Counted from the first letter of the stretch, positions 26,906 through 46,324 are shown. The stretch is 64,000 bases of DNA from Verrucomicrobiota bacterium (GCA_013140495.1 JABFSR010000168.1:15122-79121); one strand, 5' to 3'. Numbers and translations are program-made. Notes: a model not told the origin generated them from the sequence alone.

Positions 26906-27961
26906 TTAGAAAATAGGAGTTGAAATGATTGGGCCGACTTTTTGTCCCGTCCATGTGACCAATGCCGCCTGGATGAACGCCGTGGCACCAGCGTCAAGAA
27001 TTTCCTCCGCGCGAGCCCACGGACGACGCGCCACATATACAATGTCCTTGGGTTGAAGTTTGAAATCGGGCGACTCGGCACCGAGTATCGCCTTGGTGTT
27101 TACAACAAACGTTTCGGGTTTGTTCAACGATCCGCGAATCACCAGCACCCTGCTTTGATACGCCTTGTCCGCGAAACCACCGCGCGCCGTGATGGCCGCC
27201 ATCACCGTGGCGTTCGGCGTGTAATTCATCAGGCCCGGGCCGTTGACTGCGCCAACCACGAAGATTTCGTTTGCCGAGGCTGATGCAAAATAAATGTAAT
27301 CGTCAGGCTCCAGGGCGATGTTCTGAGTGAGGTCACCCTGCTGGAATAATTTCTCAAAATCCACAGGCAGTCGTTTGCTCTGGCGAATGATAAAACTGTG
27401 CGAAAGATCAGCCAGCTCGACCGTGTTCTGCTCGAACAAACCCGTTTCCAAGCCGCCTGCACCCGCGATGGCCTGAATCATCGTCGTCGGACGGTCCAGC
27501 GGGAACACGCCCTTGGTCACAACAGAGCCGAGCAGGAAAAACTTTTTGCTACGATAGGCTGACGGCGTGATGATCGTGCGCGCATTGCGGTAATACTTTC
27601 CGAGCGCGTCGTCAAATTTCGAGCGCAGTTCATCAATCGTCAGTCCGGTTGCCATCACATCCTCTGCCTGGAGAAACGTCACGCGACCGTCCGGGCCGAT
27701 AGGTACATCCCTGCGCGACAACTCAGGCTGGTCGAACAGCACGAAGTTCAAAAGGTCGCCCGGTCCGAGCGTAAGTTTCTTTTGCCACTGTGCCCGCATT
27801 GAAGGCGAATTCGCCGTAAGTGACATGTTGGTATTGATCGCCCGCACGGAATTGTCCGCCGGGGCATTTGGCGCGGCAGCATCCTCTGCGAACGAGGGCA
27901 GCACTGCCAGTCCGAGCAGCAGTCCTGCGAGCGCGAAGGGTTTGAGGATTCGTTTCTTCAT
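26906..27961 (-). CDS. polysaccharide export protein (Wza-like)
   Basis: Signal peptide MKKRILKPFALAGLLLGLAVLPSFA. Contains GPGDLLNFVLFDQPELSRRDVPIGPDGRVTFLQAEDVMATGLTIDEL. Its start overlaps the upstream stop in an ATGA. Confidence 0.85.
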   Translation of the reverse strand: MKKRILKPFALAGLLLGLAVLPSFAEDAAAPNAPADNSVRAINTNMSLTANSPSMRAQWQKKLTLGPGDLLNFVLFDQPELSRRDVPIGPDGRVTFLQAEDVMATGLTIDELRSKFDDALGKYYRNARTIITPSAYRSKKFFLLGSVVTKGVFPLDRPTTMIQAIAGAGGLETGLFEQNTVELADLSHSFIIRQSKRLPVDFEKLFQQGDLTQNIALEPDDYIYFASASANEIFVVGAVNGPGLMNYTPNATVMAAITARGGFADKAYQSRVLVIRGSLNKPETFVVNTKAILGAESPDFKLQPKDIVYVARRPWARAEEILDAGATAFIQAALVTWTGQKVGPIISTPIF

Positions 27962-30078
27962 AGTTCAAACATCGGTTTCGGTTCGTGATTCAAAACTGCG
28001 CCCGCAAGACGACAACGACCGTGGCGCAACGTCTCCAACTGCTGCCGCGTTTCGCGCGCAGATGATTTTCCACTGTCCGCGAGCCAGATCACCTGCGGCA
28101 GACTCTCTGCCATCAGTACAGATTCGGGCAACGATGCGGGCGGGAGTTCGATCAACACGACGAGATTATCCATCTGCCGCAAGTGCGCCAGTGTGTTTTG
28201 CCATTCTTTTCGACGCGCCAGATTCCACACCGCGCCCGGCAATGATATCTCCGAGTGTTGTGAATCCCGAGCGGCGAGGGGAAGGGGGATGTCGGAAAAC
28301 GATTCCGGTTTGGACGAGGCGGTGGTTGCGGTGTCTGTTCCTGCCGTATTACCGGCAGGATCGGTTGTTGTTGCCGTCGCGGTTGTTCCTGCGGCAATCG
28401 TCATGACCTGCAAACCGCGTTTCTTCGCTGCATCAGCAAGCAAACGAATCCACGTCGAGCGGCCCTCGCTGGCGCCGGCGGAGATGAACCCGCATACGAG
28501 ACCGTGATTCGGGGATGGATTGAGCTGGCCGGAAATCGCCGTCCACGTACGGAACGCCCAGGCGTCTTTTTCCTCGGGTGACATTTTTTCGAGATCGCCC
28601 AGCGCGGCAAGCACCGGCAAGCCGGTGACGCGTTTCACATCGGCCGCCGTCTTGAGTTTGCCGCCGGTGACTTCCTGTCCCACAACCACGAGTGCTGCGC
28701 CGCCCAGGCCAAGCAATATTCCAGCGAGCGCACCCAGGAACGCATTGAACCAGCGCGTGGCGCTGTCCACATCCTGCAATTTGGCCGGGGCGAAAACACG
28801 GTAATAACCTTGCGCGTGTTCCTGATAGAGTTGTGCCTCGCGCTGACGGTTGGCGAGCAGCGCGCGGCTCTTTTGCAGGCCGTCAACCTGCGCTTTGAGA
28901 TTCGCATAGCGCAGACCGTTTTCGGAAAGGCCGGTTACTTTTTTCTGCAAGGACTCCTTCAATTTGGCGAGTTCCGTCATCTCTCGTTGCACGGTCATCT
29001 TTCGCGTCTGCAAATCCATGTAGCGGACGTAGAGCGAAGCCACTTGTGGGTTGTCACTGTACTTCGCGGAGGACAAAGCGGTTTCACCAGCACTGACGAC
29101 CTGCTTTTCCAGTTCAGTGATCAGTTTGCGCTGGCTTTGAACGGTCGGGTGTATCTCGGTATAACGCCCGGTCAGATCGGTGAGTTTGTTTCGCGCGCCT
29201 TCGAGTTTTTCAGAAACCGGATTGCGTTGCAGCAACTCGGTTTGGAGCGCGTTGACCTGGAGATCGAGCAACTCGGCTTCAATGTGGGCGTTGTCGCTGC
29301 GCGCCAGCATATCGGTCAACTGTTTCACATAACCCTGACGTTCCGCTTCAGGGTCGGCGAGATTTGCAGCGTTTTGAAAACGGATCAATTCGCCGTTGGC
29401 CTGGGCGAGCTGTTGATCCAGCGCAACGAGTTTCTCCCGGCAAAATTTTTCCATCTGCGCCGATTCGGACGACTGCAACTCGCGTCCGAGCGCCACGGCT
29501 TCGTCTCCAAACAAATTCGCCAGTGCCACGAGCGGTTTTTTTGATTTGCCGGAAACCTTCAGGCCCACGATGTCCGTGTTCGGCACCAACTCCACGGAAA
29601 CCCGGCCTCGCAATGAATCTTCGGACTCGGATGATTTCGATGCCACGCGCCGGAGCAGTTCCGTCGAGGACATGAGATTCACCAGCGTCTGTGCGTTGAA
29701 TGGATGCGGACGGTACGCCTCGGTTTCAGCAGCCGAACTCAGCGATGCACCCGCCTCGCGCGCGATGAGCGTCATCCGAACGCGATAATCTGAAATCAGG
29801 AACACAACGATTGCAGCCAGCACCGCAGTCGCTCCCGCCACGCTCCAGATGAACTGTGAATGCGCTTTCAGTGCTGCGGCCATGCGCCAGGGATCGAATC
29901 GGGGCGCGCGCCCCGGGTTGGGCGACGCGCTCCGGGATTGCGCAGAAGAATCAGCGGAGGATGTGAAATCGTACTCAAGCGGCGGCAGTGAAGATTGTTC
30001 GTGCGCAGGACGCGACGTGACACTCGCGCGTTTGGCGCGCACTGCGCTCAGGCTGAGTTCTCCGGAATTGCCGTTCAT
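27958..30078 (-). CDS. GumC/Wzc-like polysaccharide chain-length determinant with a degenerate C-terminal P-loop domain
   Basis: Two TM segments (FIWSVAGATAVLAAIVVFLI and FLGALAGILLGLGGAALVVVG) flank a long coiled-coil periplasmic region. The C-terminal domain reads SAGASEGRST where the Walker A sequence is expected. The start overlaps the upstream stop in an ATGA. Confidence 0.8.
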   Translation of the reverse strand: MNGNSGELSLSAVRAKRASVTSRPAHEQSSLPPLEYDFTSSADSSAQSRSASPNPGRAPRFDPWRMAAALKAHSQFIWSVAGATAVLAAIVVFLISDYRVRMTLIAREAGASLSSAAETEAYRPHPFNAQTLVNLMSSTELLRRVASKSSESEDSLRGRVSVELVPNTDIVGLKVSGKSKKPLVALANLFGDEAVALGRELQSSESAQMEKFCREKLVALDQQLAQANGELIRFQNAANLADPEAERQGYVKQLTDMLARSDNAHIEAELLDLQVNALQTELLQRNPVSEKLEGARNKLTDLTGRYTEIHPTVQSQRKLITELEKQVVSAGETALSSAKYSDNPQVASLYVRYMDLQTRKMTVQREMTELAKLKESLQKKVTGLSENGLRYANLKAQVDGLQKSRALLANRQREAQLYQEHAQGYYRVFAPAKLQDVDSATRWFNAFLGALAGILLGLGGAALVVVGQEVTGGKLKTAADVKRVTGLPVLAALGDLEKMSPEEKDAWAFRTWTAISGQLNPSPNHGLVCGFISAGASEGRSTWIRLLADAAKKRGLQVMTIAAGTTATATTTDPAGNTAGTDTATTASSKPESFSDIPLPLAARDSQHSEISLPGAVWNLARRKEWQNTLAHLRQMDNLVVLIELPPASLPESVLMAESLPQVIWLADSGKSSARETRQQLETLRHGRCRLAGAVLNHEPKPMFEL

Positions 30079-30908
30079 GCGATCAACAGGGTCTGATGAC
30101 GATCCAGGTCGCGCGCCACTGCATCCACGGCCGCATACGTGACTCTTGGATACTCATGCAGCCACGCAAACTCAAGCGCGAGTTTGCCCAGACGGTTCAA
30201 TGCGCGCGGCACCCCCTGGGTTGCTTCGAACGCGCGTTCGACGGCATTTGGGTCAAACAGGTCGCCCGTGGCATGGCCCGCCGCAAACAACCGGTGGCTG
30301 AAATAATTGGCTGAATCCTCAAGCGACAACGCGTCGAGATGAAAACGCAGGCTCACGCGCTGGTTTACCGCAGGACAAAGGGCGATTCTCTCCCGTAACT
30401 CGGGTTGGCCGACAAGAATCAGTGTAAGAAAGCTGCGTCCGTCGCCGTTAAGGTTGGTGAGCAGCTTGAGTTCATTAAGCGTGGAGGCAGACATTTCCTG
30501 CGCCTCGTCGAAGATAAGCACCAGATGGCGGTTCTCCGCAGCAAGGCGTGCCAGAGTGTGTTCGAATTGCATCCAACGCGCGGCCTTGGTTCGCGCGAGC
30601 GGAGTTCCCTCATCCAGCAAAGCGCGCAGCGTCAGCCCGAGAAGGTCGTTGAAACTAAACGCGGAGTTTTCATGGGTGATGACGTGGAAATGACTCCGTG
30701 CCAGTTGGCGCGAAAACACTGCGCGTGTGAGGGTTTTCCCGCAACCGATCTCGCCGGTCAACATCCCCAGCAACATCGTCTGCTCGCCTACTACGAAGCT
30801 CAGGCGGTTGAGTGCCTCGTCGTGTGCGCGACCTTGAAAAAAGAAACGCGTGTCCCACGTCGGTTCAAACGGACGCTCCCGCAATCTCCAGTATTCCAGC
30901 AAGTCCAT
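30075..30908 (-). CDS. ExeA-like AAA ATPase (secretion ATPase type found in exopolysaccharide loci)
   Basis: ATG at 30908 (MDLLEYWRLRERPF...). Walker A GEIGCGKT and Walker B LVLIFDEAQ are present. Overall collinear with ExeA/GspA-type ATPases. Confidence 0.8.
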   Translation of the reverse strand: MDLLEYWRLRERPFEPTWDTRFFFQGRAHDEALNRLSFVVGEQTMLLGMLTGEIGCGKTLTRAVFSRQLARSHFHVITHENSAFSFNDLLGLTLRALLDEGTPLARTKAARWMQFEHTLARLAAENRHLVLIFDEAQEMSASTLNELKLLTNLNGDGRSFLTLILVGQPELRERIALCPAVNQRVSLRFHLDALSLEDSANYFSHRLFAAGHATGDLFDPNAVERAFEATQGVPRALNRLGKLALEFAWLHEYPRVTYAAVDAVARDLDRHQTLLIA

Positions 30909-31404
30909 GATTGTTTCTGGCCGAACCGTAGTCCGGTAACGCCACGGGCGAAACCCGGTGAGAATCCCAAAGCCGTGTCCGGGCGAAGCCCATCTCAACA
31001 GCATTCCTGGGCGAGCCTGGCCGAGGACAACGCCATGGCACTGCCGCAGAACATTCCAACGAGGTCAAGTTTTCAGACAGCCCGTCTCAGCGCTGGATGA
31101 AGCATTTGACCTCGATTCCTCATGTTTCTTCAGAAACACAGCCCATTCAATCGTTTCACCCGGCCCGGCATCTCATTTGCTTTTCTGAATTTGTCCAGAT
31201 GTAATCCGTGAAAAGAGCTGCTCAACTTAACAGCACCAGCTTGCAGCCTTCACCCGGCGCTGCGGCTCGCCAGAGTCTCAGCCGCGCCGTAGCGCCGGGC
31301 GTAGGCGGGTGTGGGCCGATTTTGTCGTTGCCCAAATCGGTGTCGTTGTTTGCACGGATAATGTTCAAGAATTTCGCCGCCAGGCCCGAGGGGCTGATGC
31401 TGTC

Positions 31405-32685
31405 ATGACCTCATTTTTCAAGAACTCCAACCAACCCCTGCATCGTATCCTTGTCATTGACGACGAGCAGATCGTGCTTGCCGGTTTGCGAGAAGTGCTG
31501 TCCCGCGAGGGATATCAGGTGGTCACCGCGTCGAATTCATTCATCGCTCTCGACGAGCTTCAGAAGCAGCAGTTTTCCGTCATCATCTCGGACAATCAGA
31601 TGCCCGGCGTGACCGGCCTCGAATTCCTGTCGCAGGCCAAGGAAATCCAGTCAAACGCCACCCGCATTCTCATCACGGCGGTTCTCAGTCTTGACACCGT
31701 CATAGACGCCATAAATCGCGGCGAGATTTACCGTTTCATCGTCAAGCCGTGGCTGCGCGAGGAATTGCTGGCAACCGTCAAGAACGCCGTCCAGCGCTAC
31801 GAACTCATCGTTCGCAACGCCGATCTCCAGAACGAATCCCTGGTGATGAACCAGCGGTTGAAGGAACTTAATCAATCACTCGAACACCAGATCGCGCGCG
31901 TGGCCGAGCAAAATGAACTGCTCTCCGCCCAGAACGCCTCGCTCGCTGAGAACATCCAGCATTCAGTCCAGCTCGGTTTGCATGTGCTTCAGACTTTTCA
32001 TCCCGCTCTTGGCAATCAGGCCCGACGCGTCCATGAAGTCTGCAAAGCCATGGCTGACACGTTGCGCCTCACGCCGGAAAAACGCCAGGTGCTCGAAGTC
32101 AGCGCGTGGTTGCACGACATCGGGCTCGTCGGCATTCACAGGCAGATCATTCAAAAGTGGGAGCAGGATCGGGAGAATCTGAAGGAGGACGAGCTTTCCA
32201 TTCTTCGCAGCCATCCAGTTTTCGGCCAGGACCTCGTCAAGTTCGGCCATCACCTTGCGGATGTGGGCATGATCATCCGCGCGCATCATGAACGTTTCGA
32301 TGGCATAGGCTTTCCAGACGGACTTGCCGGTGAAGAAATCCCCTGGCTCGCGCGGTTGCTGGCCGTGGCCGTGGCTTATGCGGAATCGCCACACAACGAA
32401 GCCAATGCCATCGAATCCATCAAGCTGGACAGCGGAACGGCATTTGATCCGGAAGCGGTCCGGGCGTTCATGCGGGCATTGCCCAAAGCTGACATGCCGC
32501 GCAAGGAACGTGAGGTTTTGCTCGCAGAACTTTCCCCGGGCATGGTTCTCGCCAAGGGAATTTACACACCAAACGGAGTGTTGCTCATTCCGGAGGGACA
32601 GCCTCTGTGCGAAGGTTCGATCCAAAAACTTCTGAGCCACAACCGCGTCGCACCGATCAATCAGTCGCTGCTGGTGTATTGTTGA
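31405..32685 (+). CDS. response regulator with an HD-GYP-type domain
   Basis: ATG at 31405. REC domain: ILVIDDE, phospho-acceptor context VIISDNQMPGVTG, and KPW. HD domain: WLHDIGLVG and HHERFDGIGFPDGL (GYP replaced by GFP). Confidence 0.85.
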   Translation: MTSFFKNSNQPLHRILVIDDEQIVLAGLREVLSREGYQVVTASNSFIALDELQKQQFSVIISDNQMPGVTGLEFLSQAKEIQSNATRILITAVLSLDTVIDAINRGEIYRFIVKPWLREELLATVKNAVQRYELIVRNADLQNESLVMNQRLKELNQSLEHQIARVAEQNELLSAQNASLAENIQHSVQLGLHVLQTFHPALGNQARRVHEVCKAMADTLRLTPEKRQVLEVSAWLHDIGLVGIHRQIIQKWEQDRENLKEDELSILRSHPVFGQDLVKFGHHLADVGMIIRAHHERFDGIGFPDGLAGEEIPWLARLLAVAVAYAESPHNEANAIESIKLDSGTAFDPEAVRAFMRALPKADMPRKEREVLLAELSPGMVLAKGIYTPNGVLLIPEGQPLCEGSIQKLLSHNRVAPINQSLLVYC

Positions 32686-32705
32686 AACACGGGCGCACGC
32701 CTGAA

Positions 32706-33734
32706 TTACTTCGCGCTGCTGGATTCTTTTGGCTTCTCCACGGGTGCTTTGGTTTCAACTGGTGCAGCATTGGTGTCTCCTGACTTTGCAGATTCCAGAT
32801 CCTTGAGCACACGGGTCAGCCGTGTTTTCAATTCCGTGTACGAACTGTTTGTCACCGCGCTGAGGTGAGCGCTCGCCTCGGCAAAACGGTCCGCATGCAT
32901 TTTGATCCGCGCCAGGTGCAACTGTACGCCTTCACGTTCCTCGGCATCACGCGCCAGTTTGAACGCATTCGTCCAGGAGTTCAGCGCTGCTTCGGTCCGG
33001 GGCGGGCGGATGCCGTAATAGGTTTTCGCCACGTCTGTCGCGAGCAGGAAATCATCGGGCGACAGCTTCATTGCCTTGTCGTAAAGTTCCAACGCCTTGT
33101 CGAACACCTGCTGCTCATTGATGCCGTAATGCTCCCTGGCATCCTTGCGAAACAGGAACACCGTTGTTCCGAAATTATGGTAGTAAACAGGCTCTGATGG
33201 ATCGAGCTCAATGGCTTTCGCGTAATAGATAAACGCGTTTGTTACTTCTCCGATGTGACCATAAATGTTCGCGAGGTTGTTCCACACCGCCGGATCCTTC
33301 GGATCAATAGCCCGCGCGAGTTCGAGTTGTTCCATCGCACCTTCCTCATCGCGAATATCTCCGAGAAAGCTGGCGTAAGCCACATAGCCGGAAGCGCTGT
33401 TTGTATGCCGTTTGAGATAATCCTTGTAACCATGGCGCACGAGTTCAAAGCGCTTCATGATTCTCGCGTTTAACTCTGCGTTCGGCACGCCTGCGCCCTG
33501 CTCGGCGAACTTTTGATTCTCCTTGATCCACACGTCCACCTCCGCCTGCGCTGCGTCATCCGCGTCCATGAGCTTTTGCAACTCCACCCCGGCAGGGCTG
33601 TTCGTCGCGGGGGTGCTGACCACGAAGCCGGTCTGCTGCGCCACCACGTTGCCGAGGGCCGCGGCTTGGTTTGTGGCGATGAATGCGGATACAACGCCGA
33701 GGAGAAGATTGCTCACGACGCGAGCGTAGCCCAT
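32706..33734 (-). CDS. TPR repeat protein (secreted or periplasmic)
   Basis: N-terminal hydrophobic segment LLLGVVSAFIATNQAAA. Repeated A..Y..A+..-P motifs (AVWNNLANIYGHIGEVTNAFIYYAKAIELDP and others). Confidence 0.75.
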   Translation of the reverse strand: MGYARVVSNLLLGVVSAFIATNQAAALGNVVAQQTGFVVSTPATNSPAGVELQKLMDADDAAQAEVDVWIKENQKFAEQGAGVPNAELNARIMKRFELVRHGYKDYLKRHTNSASGYVAYASFLGDIRDEEGAMEQLELARAIDPKDPAVWNNLANIYGHIGEVTNAFIYYAKAIELDPSEPVYYHNFGTTVFLFRKDAREHYGINEQQVFDKALELYDKAMKLSPDDFLLATDVAKTYYGIRPPRTEAALNSWTNAFKLARDAEEREGVQLHLARIKMHADRFAEASAHLSAVTNSSYTELKTRLTRVLKDLESAKSGDTNAAPVETKAPVEKPKESSSAK

Positions 33735-33800: not shown

Positions 33801-34478
33801 TCAAATGAAATAAGTCGCCAAGCCGAGCAGCACATTGACACCGCACAATGCCTGAAGGGTTGGGTTCTCGCTTTTGAAGAAAACGTAGTAAACAGCAACA
33901 ATCCAAAATACGATGCATAGGATTCCCCACAACGCGCCTTCATCCTTCCACGCGCAAATGATTGTGTAAATATAGACGCCAAACCCGTAGAGCAGCCATG
34001 TACCCCAAAAAATCAATGCTGCTGTCGGATTTGTGCGCCCCAAATAATACAGGCCTCCCAAAATAGCGAGGATGACAAGCAGATAAGGGTAAACACTCTT
34101 GTACCACGGAGCTTCTCCGCTCGCAGCCTTGCGGGACTTGGGACGTTTCGCTCCGGGTTTGGAGGGCGTGGGAGGTTTCTGCTGGATGCGCTGGCCGGTT
34201 TCAAGGTTTGTTCCGCATTGCGTGCATATCATCGCATCCGGTTCAACACCTGCCCCGCAGCTCTGGCAGGTTCTGCCCTCGGCAGATGGCGGTGGCGGTA
34301 ACGGCGGTGGGGCGGTTGACCCAACCGACAATCGGGGAGGCGGAGGTGGCGTGCCGGGCAGTTGCGGAACGATCATCTTCGCCTTGCAGGCCGGACACGA
34401 AATCTCCATGCCGGAATAACCGGTGTCACATGCGATGTGTTGCTGACAACCCGGGCAGGCAAATTTGATTTCACTCAT
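33801..34478 (-). CDS. double zinc-ribbon membrane protein
   Basis: ATG at 34478: MSEIKFACPGCQQHIACD...CPACKAKM. A Pro-rich linker follows, then CQSCGAG...CTQCG, then four predicted TM helices. Confidence 0.65.
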   Translation of the reverse strand: MSEIKFACPGCQQHIACDTGYSGMEISCPACKAKMIVPQLPGTPPPPPRLSVGSTAPPPLPPPPSAEGRTCQSCGAGVEPDAMICTQCGTNLETGQRIQQKPPTPSKPGAKRPKSRKAASGEAPWYKSVYPYLLVILAILGGLYYLGRTNPTAALIFWGTWLLYGFGVYIYTIICAWKDEGALWGILCIVFWIVAVYYVFFKSENPTLQALCGVNVLLGLATYFI

Positions 34479-34661
34479 AATGTTGGAACCTCGCTGCGAG
34501 CCTGTCCAAGCCCTGCACACTTGTCAATCAAACGCTCCGTTGGAGGGAAGCGACTGGAGGCAACGCTGCCGGAACTCGCATCCACAGGATGGAATTCCCC
34601 TCACCACATTCCTCAAATCCAAATGAACCTTTTACCTCTGCCGCGCGCTTAACAGAAGACG

Positions 34662-35135
34662 ATGCATTACAGCGATCCAAACACACGCCGCGACGGTGAG
34701 GAGGTGGAAGCCCCGCCGAAGTTGGTGGCCGCCCTCAGGGAACCGCCGGCGCGACGTGTGTTTGTGCCGCCCGCGGTTGACTTGTTCATCCTCAATGCGG
34801 CACGCCGCCATCTGGCCCGACATGAACGAAGGAAGTTTCAATTTGTCCGTCCCTGGATCGCCTGGCCTGCCTTGGCGACGGCCTGTCTCGCGATTGTCGG
34901 GCTTGTGGTGTTCACGACCCGCCGCCCATCGTCGGTGCAAACATTCGCCCGCGAGGACATCAACCATGACGGGCGTGTGGACATTCTGGATGCGTTCCAA
35001 CTTGCGCGTTTGTTGCAGTCGGAAACAAAACCCGCAGCCGCATCGGACGTAAACCATGATGGCGTGGTGGATTGGCGCGACGCGGAATTCATCGCAGGTC
35101 GTGCTGTGAAACTTGGAAAAGGAGGGCGATCGTGA
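34662..35135 (+). CDS. single-pass membrane protein with a C-terminal dockerin-type module
   Basis: TM segment WIAWPALATACLAIVGLVVF. Two Ca-loop repeats follow: DINHDGRVDILDAFQLARLL and DVNHDGVVDWRDAEFIAGRAV. Confidence 0.65.
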   Translation: MHYSDPNTRRDGEEVEAPPKLVAALREPPARRVFVPPAVDLFILNAARRHLARHERRKFQFVRPWIAWPALATACLAIVGLVVFTTRRPSSVQTFAREDINHDGRVDILDAFQLARLLQSETKPAAASDVNHDGVVDWRDAEFIAGRAVKLGKGGRS

Positions 35136-35584
35136 ACGCCCTGCCCATGCTCCTGTTCATGCTGCTTTTTTCCTGCTGGAATTCCTTGTTCGCTCAGTTA
35201 GCAAACACCAACTCGGTTGAGTTCCGTGCAGTGGAAGTGTTTCTCAATGCAACAAACGCTCCACTCGCGGCATACCAACTCGAATTCAAAGCCGTGGGTG
35301 GTGACGTAAAGATCGTCGGCATTGAAGGTGGCGAACATCCCGCGTTTGCCGGGCCATCGTTTTACGATCCGCAGGCGATGCAACAGGAGCGTGTTATCCT
35401 GGCCGCGTTCAGCACGAATTCGGTGACGCAATTGCCAACGGGCCGCACGCGCGTGGCGACAATCCATCTTCAAGTCAGACATGGAAGTAAATTGAAGTTC
35501 GAGACGAAGCTCGAAGCAGCGGCAGATTCAAACGGAAACAAAATAACGGCAGGAGTCGCCGTAGAAGAAAAGAGGGCACAATGA
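35132..35584 (+). CDS. small secreted cohesin-like protein (tentative)
   Basis: GTG at 35132 overlaps the upstream TGA (GTGA) and has AAAGGAGGG 7 nt upstream. Signal peptide (V)NALPMLLFMLLFSCWNSLFAQ. The beta-sandwich-like pattern LAAYQLEFKAVGGDVKIVGIEGGE...VILAAFST...LPTGRTRVATIHLQV resembles the cohesin consensus by eye only. Confidence 0.5.
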   Translation: MNALPMLLFMLLFSCWNSLFAQLANTNSVEFRAVEVFLNATNAPLAAYQLEFKAVGGDVKIVGIEGGEHPAFAGPSFYDPQAMQQERVILAAFSTNSVTQLPTGRTRVATIHLQVRHGSKLKFETKLEAAADSNGNKITAGVAVEEKRAQ

Positions 35585-37725
35585 AATTCAAGAGATTGAA
35601 ATCAAAACCTATCGCGATTGGTTTCGCGCTGATGGCGATGTTTATTTTGGCGTGGATGTTTTCTGGGTGTTCGACAGAACGAGCACCAACTATGAGTGTG
35701 CCCGCATCAAAGTTTTCCGAAGGCGAATCTCGCAGACTCCTCAAGGATGGTGGAGTGCGAGGTGGCTCAGGTTTTCATTCATCGGCCGAGCGCGGTGCTA
35801 TTGCCAGATCCATCAGCGGTGCAACTTTGCACGAAGAAATCTGGGTTATCGCTCGTTCCCGCATTTCCACCGCGCCCCAATCCGACGACACACCAGGCTC
35901 GGGCGCGTTGATGACTAAGATCGCTGGCAAACCTGTGCCGATGCCTCTCAAGCACACGGACGTTCGCGCGTCTGTGAGCGGCTTCATCGGATCGGTTGAA
36001 GTCGTTCAGCAGTTCCACAACCCGTATTCGAGCAAGATCGAGGCAGTGTACGTGTTTCCATTGCCGCACAACGCCGCAATCAACGAGTTCCTCATGACGA
36101 TCGGCGGGCGCCGGATTCGCGGCATCATCCGGGAACGCAAGGAGGCGGAGGAAATCTATCAAGCGGCCAAGCAACAAGGCCACGTCGCATCGCTGCTGAC
36201 TGAGGAACGACCGAACATTTTCACACAGTCAGTCGCAAATATCGAACCGGGTCGCGAGATTGACGTGACGATCAAATACTTTCACACGCTTGATTACGTG
36301 GACGGCTGGTACGAGTTTGTTTTCCCCATGGTCGTCGGGCCAAGGTTCAATCCTCCGGGGACAACTGATGGCATCGGCGCTGCCGCGCGGGGTGGCGCGG
36401 GTTCGTCCGGACAAAAGACCGAAGTTCAATATCTCAAACCGGGCGAGCGCAGTGGACATGATATTTCGCTGCGCGTGGATGTGGACGCCGGCGTAACCAT
36501 TGAGGAGTTCAATTGCCGCACGCATGAAGTCACCGCGAACACCGCTCCCGATGGCCGCCTGAGCGTCGCGCTCAAACCGCATGACAACATTCCCAACCGC
36601 GACTTCGTGCTCCGTTATCGCGTAGCGGGTGAAGAAATCAAATCCAGCCTGCTGACGCGTCGCGACGAGCGCGGCGGATATTTTTCGCTGATGTTGTTTC
36701 CTCCTGCGGAGCTGACGAAGCTGGCGCGGCAGCCGCTCGAACTTGTGTTTGTTTTGGACTGCTCCGGCAGCATGAACGGCGTTCCCCTCGCACAGGCCAA
36801 GGCTGCGGTGGAGCGCGGATTAAAGCTCATGTCGCAGGCTGATTCGTTTCAGATCATCAATTTTTCTGAACACGCGTCACAGCTTGGTTCGCGACCGCTC
36901 GCCGCCACGCACGAAAATATCGAGCGCGGTTTGCGCTATCTGCGTTCTCTCAACAGCGAAGGTGGCACGATGATGATCGAAGGCATCAAGGCTGCGCTGG
37001 ATTTTCCGCACGACCCGGAGCGGCTTCGCTTCGTCTGCTTTCTCACCGACGGTTACATTGGAAACGAGGCTGAAATCCTGCGTGAGGTTCAAGCCCGACT
37101 CGGGGGCTCGCGAATCTTCAGTTTCGGTGTCGGTTCGTCAGTAAACCGGTTTTTACTCGATCACATGGCGAAGACTGGACGCGGTACGGTGGCCTACCTC
37201 GGCCCGCAGGACGACGGAGCAAAGGTGATGGAAGATTTCTTCAATCGCACGAGTCATCCAGCGATGACGGACATCCAGGTTGATTGGGGAGGCGTTGAGC
37301 CCCGCGAGATTTTTCCGCGAGCCACGCCGGACCTGTTCATAGGTCGCCCGGTGATTCTCACGGGAAGATTCCAAGGCGATGAAAACGCGACGATTCGAGT
37401 TCGCGGCAAGGTTGGAAGTGAACTGGTGGAATTTACTGTGCCCGCTGGTCGCGTTGGTGCGCGCAACTCGCAAAACGGTCTCCCGCAAGTTTGGGCGCGC
37501 ATGAAAATCGCCGACCTTGCGGACGAATCCATACGAACACCGGACGCCGCTCTGGAGGATAAGATCAAACGCGTAGCGCTCGATTACGGATTGATGTCGG
37601 CCTACACGGCGTTTGTGGCGGTGGATTCTTCGCGGCGGACCGAAGGCGCGGAGGGCACGACCGTGCCGGTTGCTGTTCCGGTGCCGGAAGGCGTGAAGTA
37701 TCGCACCACCGTGCCTGAAAAGTAA
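35581..37725 (+). CDS. VIT domain + von Willebrand factor A domain protein
   Basis: The ATG overlaps the upstream stop in an ATGA. VIT-like segment: VRASVSGFIGSVEVVQQFHNPYSSKIEAVYVFPLP...IRERKEAEEIYQAAKQQG. vWA MIDAS motif: LVFVLDCSGSMNG. Confidence 0.85.
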   Translation: MKFKRLKSKPIAIGFALMAMFILAWMFSGCSTERAPTMSVPASKFSEGESRRLLKDGGVRGGSGFHSSAERGAIARSISGATLHEEIWVIARSRISTAPQSDDTPGSGALMTKIAGKPVPMPLKHTDVRASVSGFIGSVEVVQQFHNPYSSKIEAVYVFPLPHNAAINEFLMTIGGRRIRGIIRERKEAEEIYQAAKQQGHVASLLTEERPNIFTQSVANIEPGREIDVTIKYFHTLDYVDGWYEFVFPMVVGPRFNPPGTTDGIGAAARGGAGSSGQKTEVQYLKPGERSGHDISLRVDVDAGVTIEEFNCRTHEVTANTAPDGRLSVALKPHDNIPNRDFVLRYRVAGEEIKSSLLTRRDERGGYFSLMLFPPAELTKLARQPLELVFVLDCSGSMNGVPLAQAKAAVERGLKLMSQADSFQIINFSEHASQLGSRPLAATHENIERGLRYLRSLNSEGGTMMIEGIKAALDFPHDPERLRFVCFLTDGYIGNEAEILREVQARLGGSRIFSFGVGSSVNRFLLDHMAKTGRGTVAYLGPQDDGAKVMEDFFNRTSHPAMTDIQVDWGGVEPREIFPRATPDLFIGRPVILTGRFQGDENATIRVRGKVGSELVEFTVPAGRVGARNSQNGLPQVWARMKIADLADESIRTPDAALEDKIKRVALDYGLMSAYTAFVAVDSSRRTEGAEGTTVPVAVPVPEGVKYRTTVPEK

Positions 37726-37802
37726 CCGGGCAATCGCCTCACTATTGCGAATTGAACATTGATGGTGTCACAACGCACAGACAACAAAGAGAACGGCAAA
37801 AT

Positions 37803-38594
37803 ATGAAAACAAAAACATTGATGGCACTCATCTCAGCGCTGGCGCTCCTGGCTGGTTGCTCCACCACACGCTCCATTTCCAATTCAAACTACCACGAAGG
37901 CGGCTCGTCGCGGAGTTTCGTCCCGCACCAGAACGGTTCTGATTCCGGATTCCAGTATCGAGGCGAACTGAGCGAGTTCGACGTGCTCGGAATCACCCGA
38001 AGCGACACGGCAACGGAAGCGGATATTCAACGCACTCTGGCAAGCGCAAAGCCTGTACGAATCAAACCTGGTGCGTCCATCCTGCTGGTTCAATCCGGCG
38101 CAATTTTTCCGGACGGTCCAATGGTGAACGAGTTGAGCAAACACTTTCGCGTTGTCCCGTTTACCGGCGTTCCACCGGTTTCGCGCCGAACAGATGATGG
38201 ACAGTTCGAGCGGTACGATGCAGGAGATTTCTCCAAGTCACTGCGCCTGGCTGCTGCGCGTGGCGGGTGTGAAACGATTCTGTGCTATTGGGGAATTCTT
38301 GAATCCCGAAACGCCGAGCTTGCCACCAAGACGGTTTCTTGGGTGCCGGTGGTGAACTGGTTGGTGCCCGACGAAAGCGAGCACATGCGCATCCGGCTCA
38401 AGCTGGCGTTGGTTGATGTGCGGACAGGCGATTGGTCGGTGCTGAGTCCAAGTGCGTTCGACGACAGTCGAATCAGCCGCTCGCCGCGACGGGGAGTTGC
38501 TGACCAGAAACTGGTGGAGAGTCTTAAGCGCAAGGCATACGAGGCAGGCGCAAAAGAATTGGTTGAGGAATATGCGGACATCGCAGCCAGGTGA
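37803..38594 (+). CDS. lipoprotein of unknown function
   Basis: ATG at 37803 gives MKTKTLMALISALALLAGC (lipobox). No family recognised. Confidence 0.7.
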   Translation: MKTKTLMALISALALLAGCSTTRSISNSNYHEGGSSRSFVPHQNGSDSGFQYRGELSEFDVLGITRSDTATEADIQRTLASAKPVRIKPGASILLVQSGAIFPDGPMVNELSKHFRVVPFTGVPPVSRRTDDGQFERYDAGDFSKSLRLAAARGGCETILCYWGILESRNAELATKTVSWVPVVNWLVPDESEHMRIRLKLALVDVRTGDWSVLSPSAFDDSRISRSPRRGVADQKLVESLKRKAYEAGAKELVEEYADIAAR

Positions 38595-38859: not shown

Positions 38860-38959
38860 CGACAATAAGTTTCCGCACCCGACATAACCATTGACAGAAT
38901 GGAGTGTCGGACAATAATGCCAAAACTCGGAGCAGTCGTTGTGGAACTGCGCCAAGCTC

Positions 38960-40708
38960 ATGAAGCTAAAACTCCCAGTCCTCACACTGGTCTGCCTGTT
39001 GCCTCTCTTGCTGCCGGCGCAAAACGCGCTGACGTTCAGCACAAACAACATCGCGATCACCATCACGGGCTATGTCGGCGCATCAAGTGGTGTTACGAAT
39101 GTCGTCATTCCCACTACCATCAACGGTTATCCAGTGTTGAGCATCGGCACTTATGCGTTCTATTCCTGTACCAGCCTGACAAACGTCACCATTGGCCATG
39201 GCATGACAAACATAGGCTATGGGGCATTCTGGGATTGCGACAGCATGACAAATGCGGACATCGGCACGAATGTTTTAAACATCGATGACTACGCGTTCCA
39301 TAGTTGCAACAGCCTGCCGAGTGTGACCATTCCCAACAGCGTAACGAACATCGGCGACGGAGCCTTCTCTGAGTCCTACAGTCTGGCGGGCGTTATGATT
39401 CCTGACAGCGTGTCCAGCATCGGCTACGGAGCGTTCCGTTATTGCCACAGCCTGACGAGTGTGACGGTTTCGGACCACGTAACGAACATCGGCATGGATG
39501 CGTTCGCCGCTTGCGACGGCATGACCAACATCACCGTGCTGGAGGGAAATCCTGCTTACAGCAGCACGAACGGTGTGTTGTTTAACAAGTTCCAAACCAC
39601 GTTGATTCAATTTCCGGGAGGATTGGGCGGCAGCTATACCATTCCCGACGGCGTGACGAGTATCAGCGATCGTGCGTTCCAGAATTGCAACAACCTGACG
39701 AACGTGACGATGGCCAACAGCATCGCGCTACTCGGCGACTATGTGTTCTACAATTGTATCGGCCTGACCAGCGTCACCATTGGCAATGGGGTGAAGAATA
39801 TCAGCGAGGGCACGTTCTCTTATTGCACAAACCTGGCGAGTGTGACGATTCCGGATAATGTGACGAGCATTGAGAACGTGGCGTTTGCCTATTGCACCAG
39901 CCTGAGGAGCGCGACGATTGGTAATGGCGTGACGAACATCGGCGCTGGGGCGTTCCAAATTTGCACCAGCCTGACAAACATAGCCGTGGCCGCGGGGAAT
40001 CCTGCCTACAGCAGCGGGAACGGCGTGTTGTTTAACAAGCCCCAAACCACACTGATTCAATTCCCGGGAGGAGGCAGCGGCAGTTACACCATGCCCAGCA
40101 GCGTGACGAACATTGGCAACAATGCGTTCGCATATTGCGCCGGGCTGACGAGCGTAACAATTCCTGCCGGCGTGAGGAGCATCGGCGACGGTGCGTTCAT
40201 CCATTGCCGCGGCCTGACGAGCGTGGCAATTCCCAACAGTGTGAAGAGTATCAGCTCCGTTGCGTTCGGGGCTTGCATCGGTCTGAAAACCGTCACCATT
40301 GGCAATGGCGTGACGAACATCAACAGCAGTGCTTTTGGGGGATGCACCACGCTCACAAACCTCACTTTTTTTGGGAATGCGCCAACCTTGGGCAGCAGCG
40401 TATTCACCAGCGTTCCTGGGAAGGTCTATTATTACTACGGCACATCGGGCTGGGGCGCGACTTACGGCGGTTTGCCAACGGTAATGCTGTACTGGCCGCC
40501 GCAAATCGCTGGCAATAATGTCGGCGTTCAATCAGGCAATTTCAGGTTCACCATCACCGGCGTCTCCAATCAAACCATCGTCGTCGAGGCGAGCACCAAT
40601 CTGGTGAACTGGCAGCCGATTAGGACCAACACATTGACCAGCACGTCCACGAACTTCACCGATCCGCAATGGGGGAATTATCCCGCGCGCTTCTATCGCG
40701 CGCGATAA
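38960..40708 (+). CDS. BspA-type leucine-rich repeat surface protein with a C-terminal ...RFYRA module
   Basis: ATG at 38960 gives the signal peptide MKLKLPVLTLVCLLPLLLPAQNA. There are about 17 repeats of the type IPNSVTNIGDGAFSESYSLAGV. The C-terminus is FTITGVSNQTIVVEASTNLVNWQPI...ARFYRAR. Confidence 0.85.
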   Translation: MKLKLPVLTLVCLLPLLLPAQNALTFSTNNIAITITGYVGASSGVTNVVIPTTINGYPVLSIGTYAFYSCTSLTNVTIGHGMTNIGYGAFWDCDSMTNADIGTNVLNIDDYAFHSCNSLPSVTIPNSVTNIGDGAFSESYSLAGVMIPDSVSSIGYGAFRYCHSLTSVTVSDHVTNIGMDAFAACDGMTNITVLEGNPAYSSTNGVLFNKFQTTLIQFPGGLGGSYTIPDGVTSISDRAFQNCNNLTNVTMANSIALLGDYVFYNCIGLTSVTIGNGVKNISEGTFSYCTNLASVTIPDNVTSIENVAFAYCTSLRSATIGNGVTNIGAGAFQICTSLTNIAVAAGNPAYSSGNGVLFNKPQTTLIQFPGGGSGSYTMPSSVTNIGNNAFAYCAGLTSVTIPAGVRSIGDGAFIHCRGLTSVAIPNSVKSISSVAFGACIGLKTVTIGNGVTNINSSAFGGCTTLTNLTFFGNAPTLGSSVFTSVPGKVYYYYGTSGWGATYGGLPTVMLYWPPQIAGNNVGVQSGNFRFTITGVSNQTIVVEASTNLVNWQPIRTNTLTSTSTNFTDPQWGNYPARFYRAR

Positions 40709-43321: not shown

Positions 43322-44605
43322 ATGAGCCAGCCAGCATCAAGTGATTTGCCCGTGCAGAACGGTGACGCCTACGCCGTGCTGCGGAACCGCGACTTCTCTT
43401 GTTATCTATTTGGCCGGTTCATTGCCGCTTTAGGCCAGCAGATGCTCACAATGACATTGGGTTGGGAGCTTTACGAGCGCACGCACTCGGCGCTTGCACT
43501 GGGCCTCGTCGGATTGACTCAAGTGATACCAATGTTCCTGTTCACGCTTCCCGCCGGACACATCGCGGATAATCGCAACCGCAAACATATCCTGGTGACG
43601 TTGAACGCGGGTCTCGGAATTGTCTGCGCTGGGTTTGCTGTCATCTCTGCTGTTCGCGCCCCGGTCGTTTGGATTTATGTTTGTCTCGCCGTCGTCGGAA
43701 CAATCCGGACATTTCTCTGGGCCGCCAGCGCATCGTTCCTTCCTCAACTTGTTGAACGCAAACAATTCGCCCAAGCCGTGAACTGGAACAGCAGCACGTT
43801 TCAACTCTCGTGCATTCTTGGCCCGTTGGCGGCGGGTGGGTTGATAGAACTAACACAAAAGCCGGCGTTGGTCTATGTCGTGACTGCCACGACCATGATT
43901 GTATGCAGCGCGCTGGTCAGTTTGGTGCGGCAACGTCAGGTCGTTACAGCGCGCGAGGAAATGACGCTGAAAAGTCTGTTGACCGGATTCAAATTCGTCT
44001 TTGCAAGCCGGATCATTGTCGGCATCATTACGCTGGACCTTTTCGCTGTGCTGCTTGGAGGTGCGATAGCGTTGTTGCCGATATACGCAAAAGACATTCT
44101 ACACGTCGGGCCGACGGGGCTGGGTTTTCTGCAAACTGCCATGCCCGTCGGCGCCATTGTTTGCTCCTTCATTCTCGCGCATCGTCCACCGTTGCAGAAG
44201 GCTGGGCACGCTTTGCTATGGGCCGTGGTTGGTTTCGGCCTTGCTACCATCGGCTTTGGACTGTCCACATGGTTCTGGTTGTCGTTCGCGATGCTCTTGG
44301 TTTGTGGCGCAACCGACAATGTCAGCGTTGTAGTACGGCACACTCTTGTGCAGTTGTTGACTCCAGATGAAAAACGCGGACGTGTTTCCGCCGTCAACAA
44401 TCTGTTCATCGGCACCTCGAATGAACTGGGCGGCTTTGAATCCGGAACGGTGGCGCATTGGTTCGGTCCAGCAGTCGGAAACGCGATCGCCACCGGCGCA
44501 ATGATTTCTGTGGTGTCAGGTGGCGTGGGAACGATCTTCGCAGTTCTGTGTGTTGCGTGGATATGGCCGGAGATTCGAAAGTACGGCAGGCTGGACGCGC
44601 ACTAA
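43322..44605 (+). CDS. MFS transporter
   Basis: 427 aa with about 12 hydrophobic segments. The N-terminal pattern NRDFSCYLFGRFIAALGQQM is typical of the EntS/MFS_3-like subfamily. Confidence 0.85.
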   Translation: MSQPASSDLPVQNGDAYAVLRNRDFSCYLFGRFIAALGQQMLTMTLGWELYERTHSALALGLVGLTQVIPMFLFTLPAGHIADNRNRKHILVTLNAGLGIVCAGFAVISAVRAPVVWIYVCLAVVGTIRTFLWAASASFLPQLVERKQFAQAVNWNSSTFQLSCILGPLAAGGLIELTQKPALVYVVTATTMIVCSALVSLVRQRQVVTAREEMTLKSLLTGFKFVFASRIIVGIITLDLFAVLLGGAIALLPIYAKDILHVGPTGLGFLQTAMPVGAIVCSFILAHRPPLQKAGHALLWAVVGFGLATIGFGLSTWFWLSFAMLLVCGATDNVSVVVRHTLVQLLTPDEKRGRVSAVNNLFIGTSNELGGFESGTVAHWFGPAVGNAIATGAMISVVSGGVGTIFAVLCVAWIWPEIRKYGRLDAH

Positions 44606-44719
44606 TAGGAAAACTTCAAGTTCAGGTGGAATGCCCCGCGATGGTGGGCAAGGACGTTCGGGGTCAAATTGGATTGCGGTCTTTACCCGCCAACGACTCC
44701 CACCGTAGAATCCGCGCCT

Positions 44720-46315
44720 ATGAACTATTCAAAGCAGCAGCTTTGGGAGCGCTTCAAAAAATTCTACACAGAATTCCCAGACCTCGAACTTGCGATTGAT
44801 CTGAGTCGCACTGGAATCACAGACGAGTTTCTGAAGGACATGGAACCGCGGATGCAAAAGGCGTTCGATGCCATGAAGGCTTTGGAGGCTGGCGCGATTG
44901 CAAACCCGGATGAGGGCAGGATGGTGGGGCATTATTGGCTGCGCAACCCAACGCTCGCGCCCACTGCTGACATCCGTTCCGCAATTGAAACAACTCTTGC
45001 TCGGGTGAAAGCTTTTGCGGCGGATGTTTTGAGTGGCAAGATTCGAGGTGCGGGTGGCGTGTTTGAAAACATGTTGTTGATCGGCATCGGCGGCTCGGCG
45101 TTGGGGCCGCAGTTCGTTGGAGATGCCTTAGGCGAGCCTGGCAGCAAATCGTTGCGTACATTCTATTTCGACAACACCGATCCGGACGGAATGCAGCGTG
45201 TGCTTAAAAAGCTTGAAGGACAACTAGCTAGAACACTCTGTCTAGTCATATCAAAATCAGGCGGCACAAAGGAAACTCGCAATGGGATGTTGGAAGCCAA
45301 GGCTGCTTATTGCAGTGCCGGGGTGACCTTTGAGAAGCATGTGATCGCAGTGACCGGTGAAGGTAGCGAGCTTGATCAAATTGCAACCAAGACTGGTTGG
45401 CTGGAACGTTTCCCCATGTGGGATTGGGTTGGAGGGAGAACGAGCGAGCTTTCCGCAGTCGGACTACTTCCAGCTGCATTGCAGGGGATTGATGTGGATA
45501 GTTTTTTGTCCGGTGCAAAAGCGTGCGATGAGCAAACCCGCACATCAGCTATTCATAAAAACCCTGCTGCATTGCTAGCATTGGCATGGTTTCAGGCCAC
45601 TGGAGGCTTGGGGAACAAGAACATGGTAGTCATCCCATACAAAGACCGGCTTGGTTTGCTTTCGAAGTATCTTCAACAGTTAATTATGGAGTCTCTGGGA
45701 AAGGAAAAAGACCTCAACGGCAATGTTGTTCACCAGGGTATCACTGTGCTCGGCAATAAAGGAGCTACAGATCAACACTCTTATGTTCAACAGTTAAGAG
45801 ATGGATTAAATGATTTCTTCCTCACATTCGTGGAGGTGTTGGTTGATCAGCGTGGAACGCCACTGCAGGTCGAACCAGAAGTAACATCAGGAGACTATCT
45901 CGCCGGATTCTTGCTTGGAACAAGGCAAGCATTGTTTGAGAGCGGGCGAGAATCGGTTTGTCTGACAGTCAAAAATGTTTCACCGTTCGGTGTTGGAGTT
46001 TTGATAGCACTCTTTGAGCGGGCAGTCGGTTTATATGCGACTCTGGTTAACATAAACGCCTATCACCAGCCAGGCGTCGAGGCAGGAAAAAAAGCAGCGT
46101 CTGCGGTGCTCGATCTACAACGAAAAGTAGCGGCACACATCACATCAAACATAGGAAGGCAGATCGACGCCGAACAAATTGCCTCTGAAATTGGAGCCCC
46201 AGATGACGCTGAACACGTGTTCAAAATTTGCCGTCGGCTCGCCGAAAACCCGGCCCGCAAGATATTCTGCATTGCTGAAAAACCTGTCTTTTATTCCAAG
46301 TTCTATTCGGTATAG
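44720..46315 (+). CDS. pgi: glucose-6-phosphate isomerase
   Basis: ATG at 44720. Motifs [21 protein letters not shown] and [17 protein letters not shown] are present. Confidence 0.9.
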
Positions 46316-46324
46316 ACTGGGTCA

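Follow-up and report, generated by a model that had tools for sequence, protein, structure and literature searches.

A 64,000-nt stretch of DNA from a Verrucomicrobiota bacterium (GCA_013140495.1 JABFSR010000168.1:15122-79121), referred to below as the window, carries an operon at positions 34662-38594 whose four genes encode a membrane-anchored dockerin protein (gene 1), a secreted cohesin-like protein (gene 2), a lipoprotein with VIT and vWA domains (gene 3) and a further lipoprotein (gene 4). Comparison with related loci suggests that this operon is probably both the output and the regulatory arm of a dedicated extracytoplasmic function (ECF) sigma factor, with the gene 1 protein acting as anti-sigma factor and its dockerin bound by the gene 2 protein. 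A more tentative proposal, for which the chances seem slightly short of even, is that an ECF sigma/anti-sigma pathway conserved across Verrucomicrobiota and Planctomycetota transduces its signal through the cohesin-dockerin contact, in such a way that breaking or loading the contact would free the sigma factor from a minimal, new type of anti-sigma factor. Cohesins and dockerins outside cellulosomes are widespread, and for most of them neither partner nor role is known.

Synteny and an ECF-type promoter in two phyla

The genes surrounding gene 2 were compared in 81 loci, consisting of the window and 80 loci with gene 2 relatives from Verrucomicrobiota, Phycisphaerae and Planctomycetaceae, and the open reading frames (ORFs) of each locus were searched with the window proteins. 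A homologue of gene 1 lies directly 5' of gene 2 in 79 of the 81 loci, the two exceptions being loci with little or no upstream sequence, and a VIT-vWA gene is found 3' of gene 2 in 72. The 4-nt NTGA overlap is retained between genes 1 and 2 in 52 loci and between genes 2 and 3 in 46, an arrangement that is far beyond chance. The four-gene order set out in a preliminary description of this DNA can thus be divided: the dockerin, cohesin-like and VIT-vWA genes keep their order across two phyla, and the lipoprotein gene is not part of this conserved order, its homologues being found after the VIT-vWA gene in just 17 of the related loci, every one of them from Verrucomicrobiota. Six of the metagenome-assembled genomes (MAGs; L002, L003, L004, L023, L060 and L079) are labelled Bifidobacterium, Klebsiella or Chitinophaga despite a module of the Verrucomicrobiota/Planctomycetota type, and are probably mislabelled or mis-binned.

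In about 64 loci the dockerin gene is adjoined by an ECF sigma gene, and these sigma genes form one coherent clade, which NCBIfam assigns to the generic superfamily only. About 49 of these loci have the ECF gene co-directional with the dockerin gene and directly before it, and in about 15 the two genes diverge; in Verrucomicrobiota and Phycisphaerae the ECF gene is co-directional and lies ~30 nt upstream, and in Planctomycetaceae it is divergent. No further conserved genes were found around the module in these loci. Four Planctomycetaceae loci (L032, L040, L041 and L046) have an extra gene for a lipoprotein of ~293 aa between the promoter motif described below and the dockerin gene, ~1 kb upstream of the latter.

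The regions upstream of the ECF genes in the relatives yielded the motif TGAACCTTTT-N14-CACTTAA, which corresponds to a typical ECF promoter with an AAC-containing -35 element. The motif occurs twice per locus in the relatives, once upstream of the ECF gene and once more in a position that normally abuts the dockerin gene. All 41 exact matches, distributed over 26 loci, are either upstream of the ECF gene or between the ECF and dockerin genes, and no weight-matrix match of 16 bits or more was found elsewhere in about 1 Mb of loci. In many relatives the ECF gene runs into the second promoter, its stop codon TGA being the opening triplet of the -35 element TGAACC. The Planctomycetaceae loci carry a related motif, TGAACC-N16/17-CACTT, before the operon.

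The window has an exact match to TGAACCTT-N16-CTTAA at 34624-34652, the sole match in 64 kb when up to one mismatch is allowed (expected 0.01). This match ends 9 nt before the ATG of gene 1, a distance so short that the gene 1 transcript is probably leaderless or nearly so, and no sigma-70-type promoter was found before gene 1 in the window. Because the ECF gene and the dockerin operon share the promoter motif, the operon of dockerin, cohesin-like and VIT-vWA genes appears to be a direct target of the ECF sigma factor.

The dockerin protein and its cohesin-like neighbour

The gene 1 protein has a single hydrophobic segment, with its best 19-residue window at residues 66-84 (mean Kyte-Doolittle value 2.3). 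Five K/R residues are found in the 15 residues before this segment and three after it, a distribution that suggests an N-in/C-out topology. The protein is predicted to consist of a cytoplasmic part (residues 1-62), a transmembrane helix (~65-86) and a periplasmic type I dockerin (98-144). Dockerin loops were sought as two duplicated 12-residue Ca2+-binding loops with D or N at positions 1, 3, 5, 9 and 12, and direct reading finds this pattern in both loops of gene 1, DINHDGRVDILD (99-110) and DVNHDGVVDWRD (129-140). Pfam Dockerin_1 (PF00404) is matched at 38.9 bits, above its cut-off of 22.9, and the same Pfam family is matched by 34 of 34 gene 1 family members, in whose alignment D99, G104, D110, D129, G134 and D140 are invariant. 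The one transmembrane helix and two canonical Ca-loops noted in the preliminary description were therefore both recovered, in a domain that Pfam identifies as a canonical dockerin.

Dockerins fold only with Ca2+. The helix of the first dockerin repeat (VDILDAFxLAR) is the only strongly conserved repeat helix in the gene 1 family, which hints at a single binding mode. When homologues of genes 1 and 2 were aligned together with MAFFT, the dockerin segment DGRVDILDAFQLA was placed onto the D..xPLAAYQLE motif of the cohesin-like family, a resemblance that is probably coincidental; this combined alignment was discarded because it misaligned the dockerins onto the cohesin part.

On the other side of the membrane, the basic N-terminal part of gene 1 contains a conserved segment of ~50 amino acids, with the motif LPxxLxxAL..VPxxxDxAIL..ARxHL kept across two phyla. 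In an AlphaFold2 model of a gene 1 homologue this cytoplasmic part is modelled as two short helices ahead of the transmembrane helix. Because gene 1 is placed after an autoregulated ECF gene, has an N-in single-pass topology and keeps a conserved cytoplasmic motif, its product is a likely candidate for a non-canonical anti-sigma factor.

The N-terminus of gene 2 resembles a signal peptide (residues 1-21, ending LFA, followed by Q), and the protein is otherwise a single bare domain that stands alone. Gene 2 has no match in Pfam at E<=1 and none in NCBIfam, and a phmmer search of PDB sequences with gene 2 found no cohesin. Its family is nevertheless sharply bounded, with 1,259 clusters at 50% identity (E<=1e-3), 1,109 of which fall below 1e-10, and nearly all of its members are small stand-alone proteins. 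An AlphaFold2 model built from 51 homologues (mean predicted local distance difference test score, pLDDT, 87.8; predicted TM-score, pTM, 0.75) was compared with PDB structures by Foldseek, a check that the preliminary description had named beforehand. The top 28 matches are all cohesins (probability 1.00, E-values 2e-4 to 6e-3, TM-scores 0.42-0.57, for a query that included the 21-residue signal peptide). Among them are type I cohesins from Clostridium thermocellum, C. acetobutylicum and Acetivibrio cellulolyticus, and also a non-cellulosomal cohesin from Archaeoglobus. Cohesins likewise came out on top for a second model, that of the natural fusion protein P0242 described below, which is ~40% identical to gene 2 in the domain; here the top 39 Foldseek matches are cohesins, with a TM-score, normalised to the target, of up to 0.60. 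Judged by these models, gene 2 has a beta-sandwich (jelly-roll) fold of the cohesin type without a detectable cohesin sequence signature.

Beta-sandwich folds are common, and with TM-scores of just 0.42-0.57 the likeness to cohesins could in principle be a generic beta-sandwich match, the gene pair itself being a chance adjacency or an annotation artefact. This is extremely improbable, however, because the gene 2 family has more than 1,250 clusters and is strongly conserved, its synteny with the dockerin gene holds in 79/81 loci across two phyla, and cohesins fill all of the top 28 and top 39 places for two models of only ~40% identity, ahead of other beta-sandwiches.

Three natural proteins, P0241, P0242 and P0243, consist of a transmembrane segment, a dockerin, a linker and the cohesin-like domain in one chain, with no second signal peptide. 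P0241 is from a Phycisphaeraceae MAG, and no frame at its junction codes for a signal peptide; P0242 and P0243 are a distant pair of fusions. Such fusions argue for a physical or functional link between the dockerin and gene 2. To our knowledge, dockerins are the only well-known partners of cohesins. Given the co-occurrence of the two genes, their translational coupling, the shared compartment of their products, the invariant Ca ligands and the fusions, the gene 2 protein most likely binds the gene 1 dockerin.

At the locus of P0242 (L082, 5371-12867), an ECF sigma gene is followed by the fused gene and then by a resistance-nodulation-division (RND) efflux system (MFP, ACR_tran, OEP), and the promoter motif is found before P0242 at 5955-5983; no VIT-vWA gene is present at this locus. 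The dockerin-cohesin unit thus seems to accompany the sigma factor and not the vWA protein, and because the fusion locus keeps the ECF gene but has no VIT-vWA gene, a signalling role is favoured over a purely structural one in which the pair would merely anchor the vWA protein.

The same observations bear on the possibility that the anti-sigma factor uses its dockerin alone to sense periplasmic Ca2+, and that gene 2 does not bind this dockerin but serves the VIT-vWA protein as a chaperone, sorting factor or ligand-binding subunit. Such a division of labour would be consistent with the general requirement of dockerins for Ca2+ in folding and with the invariance of the Ca ligands, as well as with the overlap of gene 2 with gene 3, which is as tight as that with gene 1, and with the lack of a cohesin signature in the gene 2 sequence. 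It is distinctly unlikely, though, as the three fusions link the gene 2 domain with the dockerin and not with VIT-vWA, the P0242 locus keeps the cohesin-like domain where VIT-vWA is absent, and the fold matches are specifically to cohesins.

A proposed signalling model and its weak points

In the model proposed here, the cytoplasmic N-terminus of gene 1 would sequester the sigma factor at the inner membrane, and the soluble periplasmic gene 2 protein, produced in fixed proportion through translational coupling, would bind the gene 1 dockerin. The VIT-vWA lipoprotein encoded by gene 3 would be the usual third component, either as a ligand-sensing partner or as the main product. An alteration of the cohesin-dockerin contact would change the stability or conformation of gene 1 and lead to release of the sigma factor, with ligand capture by the vWA domain, loss of Ca2+, envelope damage and mechanical force as possible triggers; the cohesin-dockerin pair is known for its force resistance. 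The freed sigma factor would then transcribe its own gene and the gene 1 operon from the TGAACCTTTT-N14-CACTTAA promoters, creating feedback. This specific release mechanism is put forward with less confidence than the model as a whole.

A number of observations speak against the model, and they concern the sigma gene, the anti-sigma candidate and the cohesin-like partner alike. No ECF sigma ORF was found within the 64-kb window, an arrangement that is common to the 92%-identical relatives L002 and L083, and the adjacent ECF gene is also missing in at least six other full-length loci. No gene 1 family member (0/34) matches the anti-sigma families of Pfam (class I ASD, zf-HC2, RskA and others) at E<=10, and the cytoplasmic part of gene 1 is shorter than class I anti-sigma domains; since no recognised anti-sigma domain occurs in the 34 family members, we infer the anti-sigma function from context. 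With respect to gene 2, Pfam Cohesin (PF00963) is matched by 0/51 family members even at E<=10, the family profile finds among PDB sequences a marginal match of 25 residues (E 0.45) to a scaffoldin cohesin of Ruminococcus flavefaciens, and the Foldseek E-values (2e-4) and TM-scores (0.42-0.57) are modest. The resemblance of gene 2 to cohesins, which the preliminary description had read from a sequence pattern, accordingly survives at the level of fold, in two independent models, and not at the level of sequence. Finally, both domains fold in the model of the P0242 fusion, whose pTM of 0.53 is ambiguous as to their docking.

The 141-nt gap between the operon and the divergent gene upstream (34521-34661) contains the promoter motif only, and no remnant of an ECF gene was found upstream of the motif in the window. 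Because the ECF stop codon TGA opens the -35 element TGAACC in relatives, and because the gap holds no such remnant, a rearrangement breakpoint appears to lie right at the promoter. In the lineage of the window the sigma gene has been relocated or has disappeared from this place, and both the promoter and the conserved cytoplasmic motif in gene 1 are still intact. An intact promoter with no adjacent sigma gene implies that the window operon is controlled in trans.

The preliminary description had suggested a self-assembling envelope complex, a proposal that is incomplete in that it misses the dedicated ECF sigma context, with a promoter 9 nt upstream of the gene 1 start and with gene 1 in the position and topology of an anti-sigma factor. 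A version that admits this context would have gene 1 as a membrane anchor only and gene 2 as a bridge to the VIT-vWA adhesin, with the ECF sigma factor merely switching on their expression. Conservation and translational coupling of the dockerin, cohesin-like and VIT-vWA genes would be expected of such a structural complex, and so would the lack of a detectable anti-sigma domain in gene 1 and the existence of several loci, the window included, without an adjacent ECF gene. It is nonetheless unlikely: gene 2 is a single bare domain that has nothing else to bridge with, the fused dockerin-cohesin variant retains the ECF gene and promoter and has no VIT-vWA, and the cytoplasmic motif of gene 1, conserved in two phyla, would not be needed by a mere anchor. 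Moreover, anti-sigma genes are classically located just behind an autoregulated ECF gene.

If correct, the signalling model would make this pair the first cohesin and dockerin to serve regulation instead of assembly, and would give a physiological role to one of the numerous 'orphan' dockerins outside cellulosomes. The locus is a compact, single-copy and phylogenetically broad case in which the partner is identifiable via adjacency, coupling and fusions, and a dedicated ECF sigma factor, whose promoter can be recognised, sets the biological context; for these reasons, three small proteins and a single promoter would suffice for a direct test of what the pair does. The analysis also points to an unannotated family of about 1,260 clusters whose cohesin-like fold has been overlooked by sequence profiles, to a candidate new minimal anti-sigma domain in gene 1, and to a sigma-promoter pair that could become an orthogonal regulatory part. 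ECF signalling, dockerins, the cohesin fold and VIT-vWA proteins are each known individually, and their combination is new within the literature searched, where no published ECF/dockerin/cohesin module was found; the ECF group tables may already list a dockerin beside this ECF clade.

Operon layout, surroundings and comparison with known systems

The coordinates of the operon and its elements are collected in Table 1. Direct reading of the sequence places all four genes on the + strand, with a GTGA overlap between genes 1 and 2 and an ATGA overlap between genes 2 and 3. The layout given in the preliminary description is borne out in its details, including the GTG start of gene 2 at 35132, which overlaps the gene 1 stop codon and is preceded by the Shine-Dalgarno sequence AAAGGAGGG five bases before, the overlap of gene 3 with the gene 2 stop codon, and the lipoprotein gene 77 nt downstream of gene 3, with its ATG at 37803 and the lipobox LLAGC.

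Table 1. Elements of the dockerin operon and its promoter, in window coordinates
Feature	Position	Strand	Remarks
ECF-sigma-type promoter (putative)	34624..34652	+	-35 = TGAACCTTTT, -10-like = (C)GCTTAA
Gene 1, transmembrane dockerin protein, 157 aa	34662..35135	+	Pfam Dockerin_1
Gene 1 dockerin domain	34953..35093	+	Ca loops 34956-34991, 35046-35081
Shine-Dalgarno AAAGGAGGG of gene 2, within gene 1 3' end	35119..35127	+	
Gene 2, secreted cohesin-like protein, 150 aa	35132..35584	+	GTG start
Gene 3, VIT-vWA lipoprotein, 714 aa	35581..37725	+	Pfam VIT, VWA families
Gene 4, lipoprotein, 263 aa	37803..38594	+	lipobox LLAGC; accessory, lineage-specific

Gene 3 comprises a VIT domain (residues 123-233; Pfam, 122 bits) and a vWA domain (387-537; VWA_3 at 51.9 bits, with VWA and VWA_2 also above their cut-offs). 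Its metal-ion-dependent adhesion site (MIDAS) is complete, with DCSGS at 393-397 (D393-x-S-x-S397), T463 and D490, so that Pfam and the motif positions agree with the VIT and vWA assignment made earlier. A lipoprotein signal, MFSG-C30, can be added to that assignment, from which it was absent; in the 72 gene 3 homologues a Cys after the signal is seen by eye in nearly all, and in 44 by a strict pattern. The nearest solved relatives in a PDB search are PARP4 (2.8e-36) and ITIH4 (6.4e-27), together with ITIH1. Assignment of gene 3 to the marine proteobacterial sortase targets of TIGR03788 was rejected, because the score of 489.2 bits is below the cut-off of 551.65 and no LP.TG motif was found in gene 3; the match stops at model position 595 of 629.

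Gene 4 has the lipobox LLAG-C19 and no match in Pfam, NCBIfam or PDB sequences. A precomputed label of PF25851 (YafT) on its homologue in locus L001 was not reproduced and was set aside. Gene 4 is outside the conserved core and is an accessory, lineage-specific member of the operon. Two variations on the layout of this region were seen among the relatives: in L001, a 177-aa lipoprotein-like gene without a family match (10666-11199) separates the gene 4 homologue from the VIT-vWA gene, and in L052 an ORF of 247 aa that faintly resembles gene 4 stands between gene 2 and VIT-vWA.

The divergent gene upstream of the operon (33801-34520, - strand) encodes a 239-aa protein with N-terminal zinc-ribbon motifs (weak, near-threshold Pfam matches to DZR and Zn_Ribbon_1), a linker rich in proline and membrane segments at the C-terminus; in L083, which is 92% identical, two short genes are called here instead. 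Farther upstream of the operon is what looks like an exopolysaccharide and regulation cluster (27958-33734), which encodes a 706-aa chain-length-determinant-like protein, an AAA ATPase, a response regulator that has an HD-type domain, and a TPR protein, with labels taken from the syntenic relative L083 and, for the TPR protein, from Pfam. Downstream of the operon, at 38939-40708 (+ strand), is the gene for a 589-aa surface protein with BspA-type leucine-rich repeats (LRR_5, 330 bits). It is transcriptionally separate from the operon, and a sigma-70 promoter close to consensus, TTGACA-16-AATAAT, is located at 38891-38918. The G+C content of the window is 0.50-0.53 at 14001-16000 and 44001-48000, compared to about 0.56-0.62 elsewhere.

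Clostridial type I cohesin-dockerin pairs, such as those of C. thermocellum in PDB entries 1OHZ and 3UL4, are close known counterparts of genes 1 and 2. As in these cellulosomal pairs, the gene 1 dockerin is built from two duplicated Ca2+ loops of 12 residues with a helix after each, gene 2 is predicted to be a beta-sandwich of the cohesin type, and both partners are extracytoplasmic. Unlike the cellulosomal pairs, the present module has no enzymes or scaffoldins, its dockerin forms the ectodomain of a membrane protein of 157 aa encoded next to an ECF gene, and its gene 2 protein is one unattached domain in the periplasm of a diderm, with no sequence similarity to Pfam Cohesin. The cohesin/dockerin proteins of the 'planctosome' proposal are large and differ from these (PMC6461901). 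With TIGR03788 proteins, ITIH heavy chains and PARP4, gene 3 shares the succession of VIT, vWA and C-terminal region and a complete MIDAS; it differs from TIGR03788 in its score below cut-off and in having no LPXTG motif and no sortase neighbour, with an N-terminal lipoprotein signal instead.

Two signalling systems provide partial precedents. In biomass sensing by the SigI-RsgI systems of C. thermocellum, RsgI ectodomains are carbohydrate-binding or glycosidase-like modules (PMC6582324, PMC10328401), and this is the nearest case of an anti-sigma factor with an extracellular module from the cellulosome toolbox; RsgI, however, has no dockerin, SigI is not an ECF sigma factor and the host is Gram-positive. 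In the ECF289 group, vWA domains occur in anti-sigma factors (PMC7826278), which likewise ties vWA domains to ECF anti-sigma signalling. There the vWA domain is inside the anti-sigma protein, whereas here it is part of a separate VIT-vWA lipoprotein and the anti-sigma candidate has a dockerin.

The closest functional analogues would be the sigmaE-RseA-RseB system of E. coli and the FecI-FecR-FecA system. Like the latter, the module would bring together a ligand-binding protein anchored in the envelope, a regulator that spans the membrane and an ECF sigma factor, but it has no TonB-dependent receptor and no FecR domain, and its outer partner would be a VIT-vWA lipoprotein coupled via cohesin and dockerin. 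With sigmaE-RseA-RseB it shares an autoregulated ECF promoter, a single-pass anti-sigma candidate beside the sigma gene, and a soluble periplasmic partner that is encoded immediately downstream and would bind the anti-sigma ectodomain. The differences are that the three downstream proteins are of unrelated folds, that the cytoplasmic segment of gene 1 is much shorter than the class I domain of RseA and has no anti-sigma Pfam match, and that a second sigma-dependent promoter lies directly before the gene of the anti-sigma candidate.

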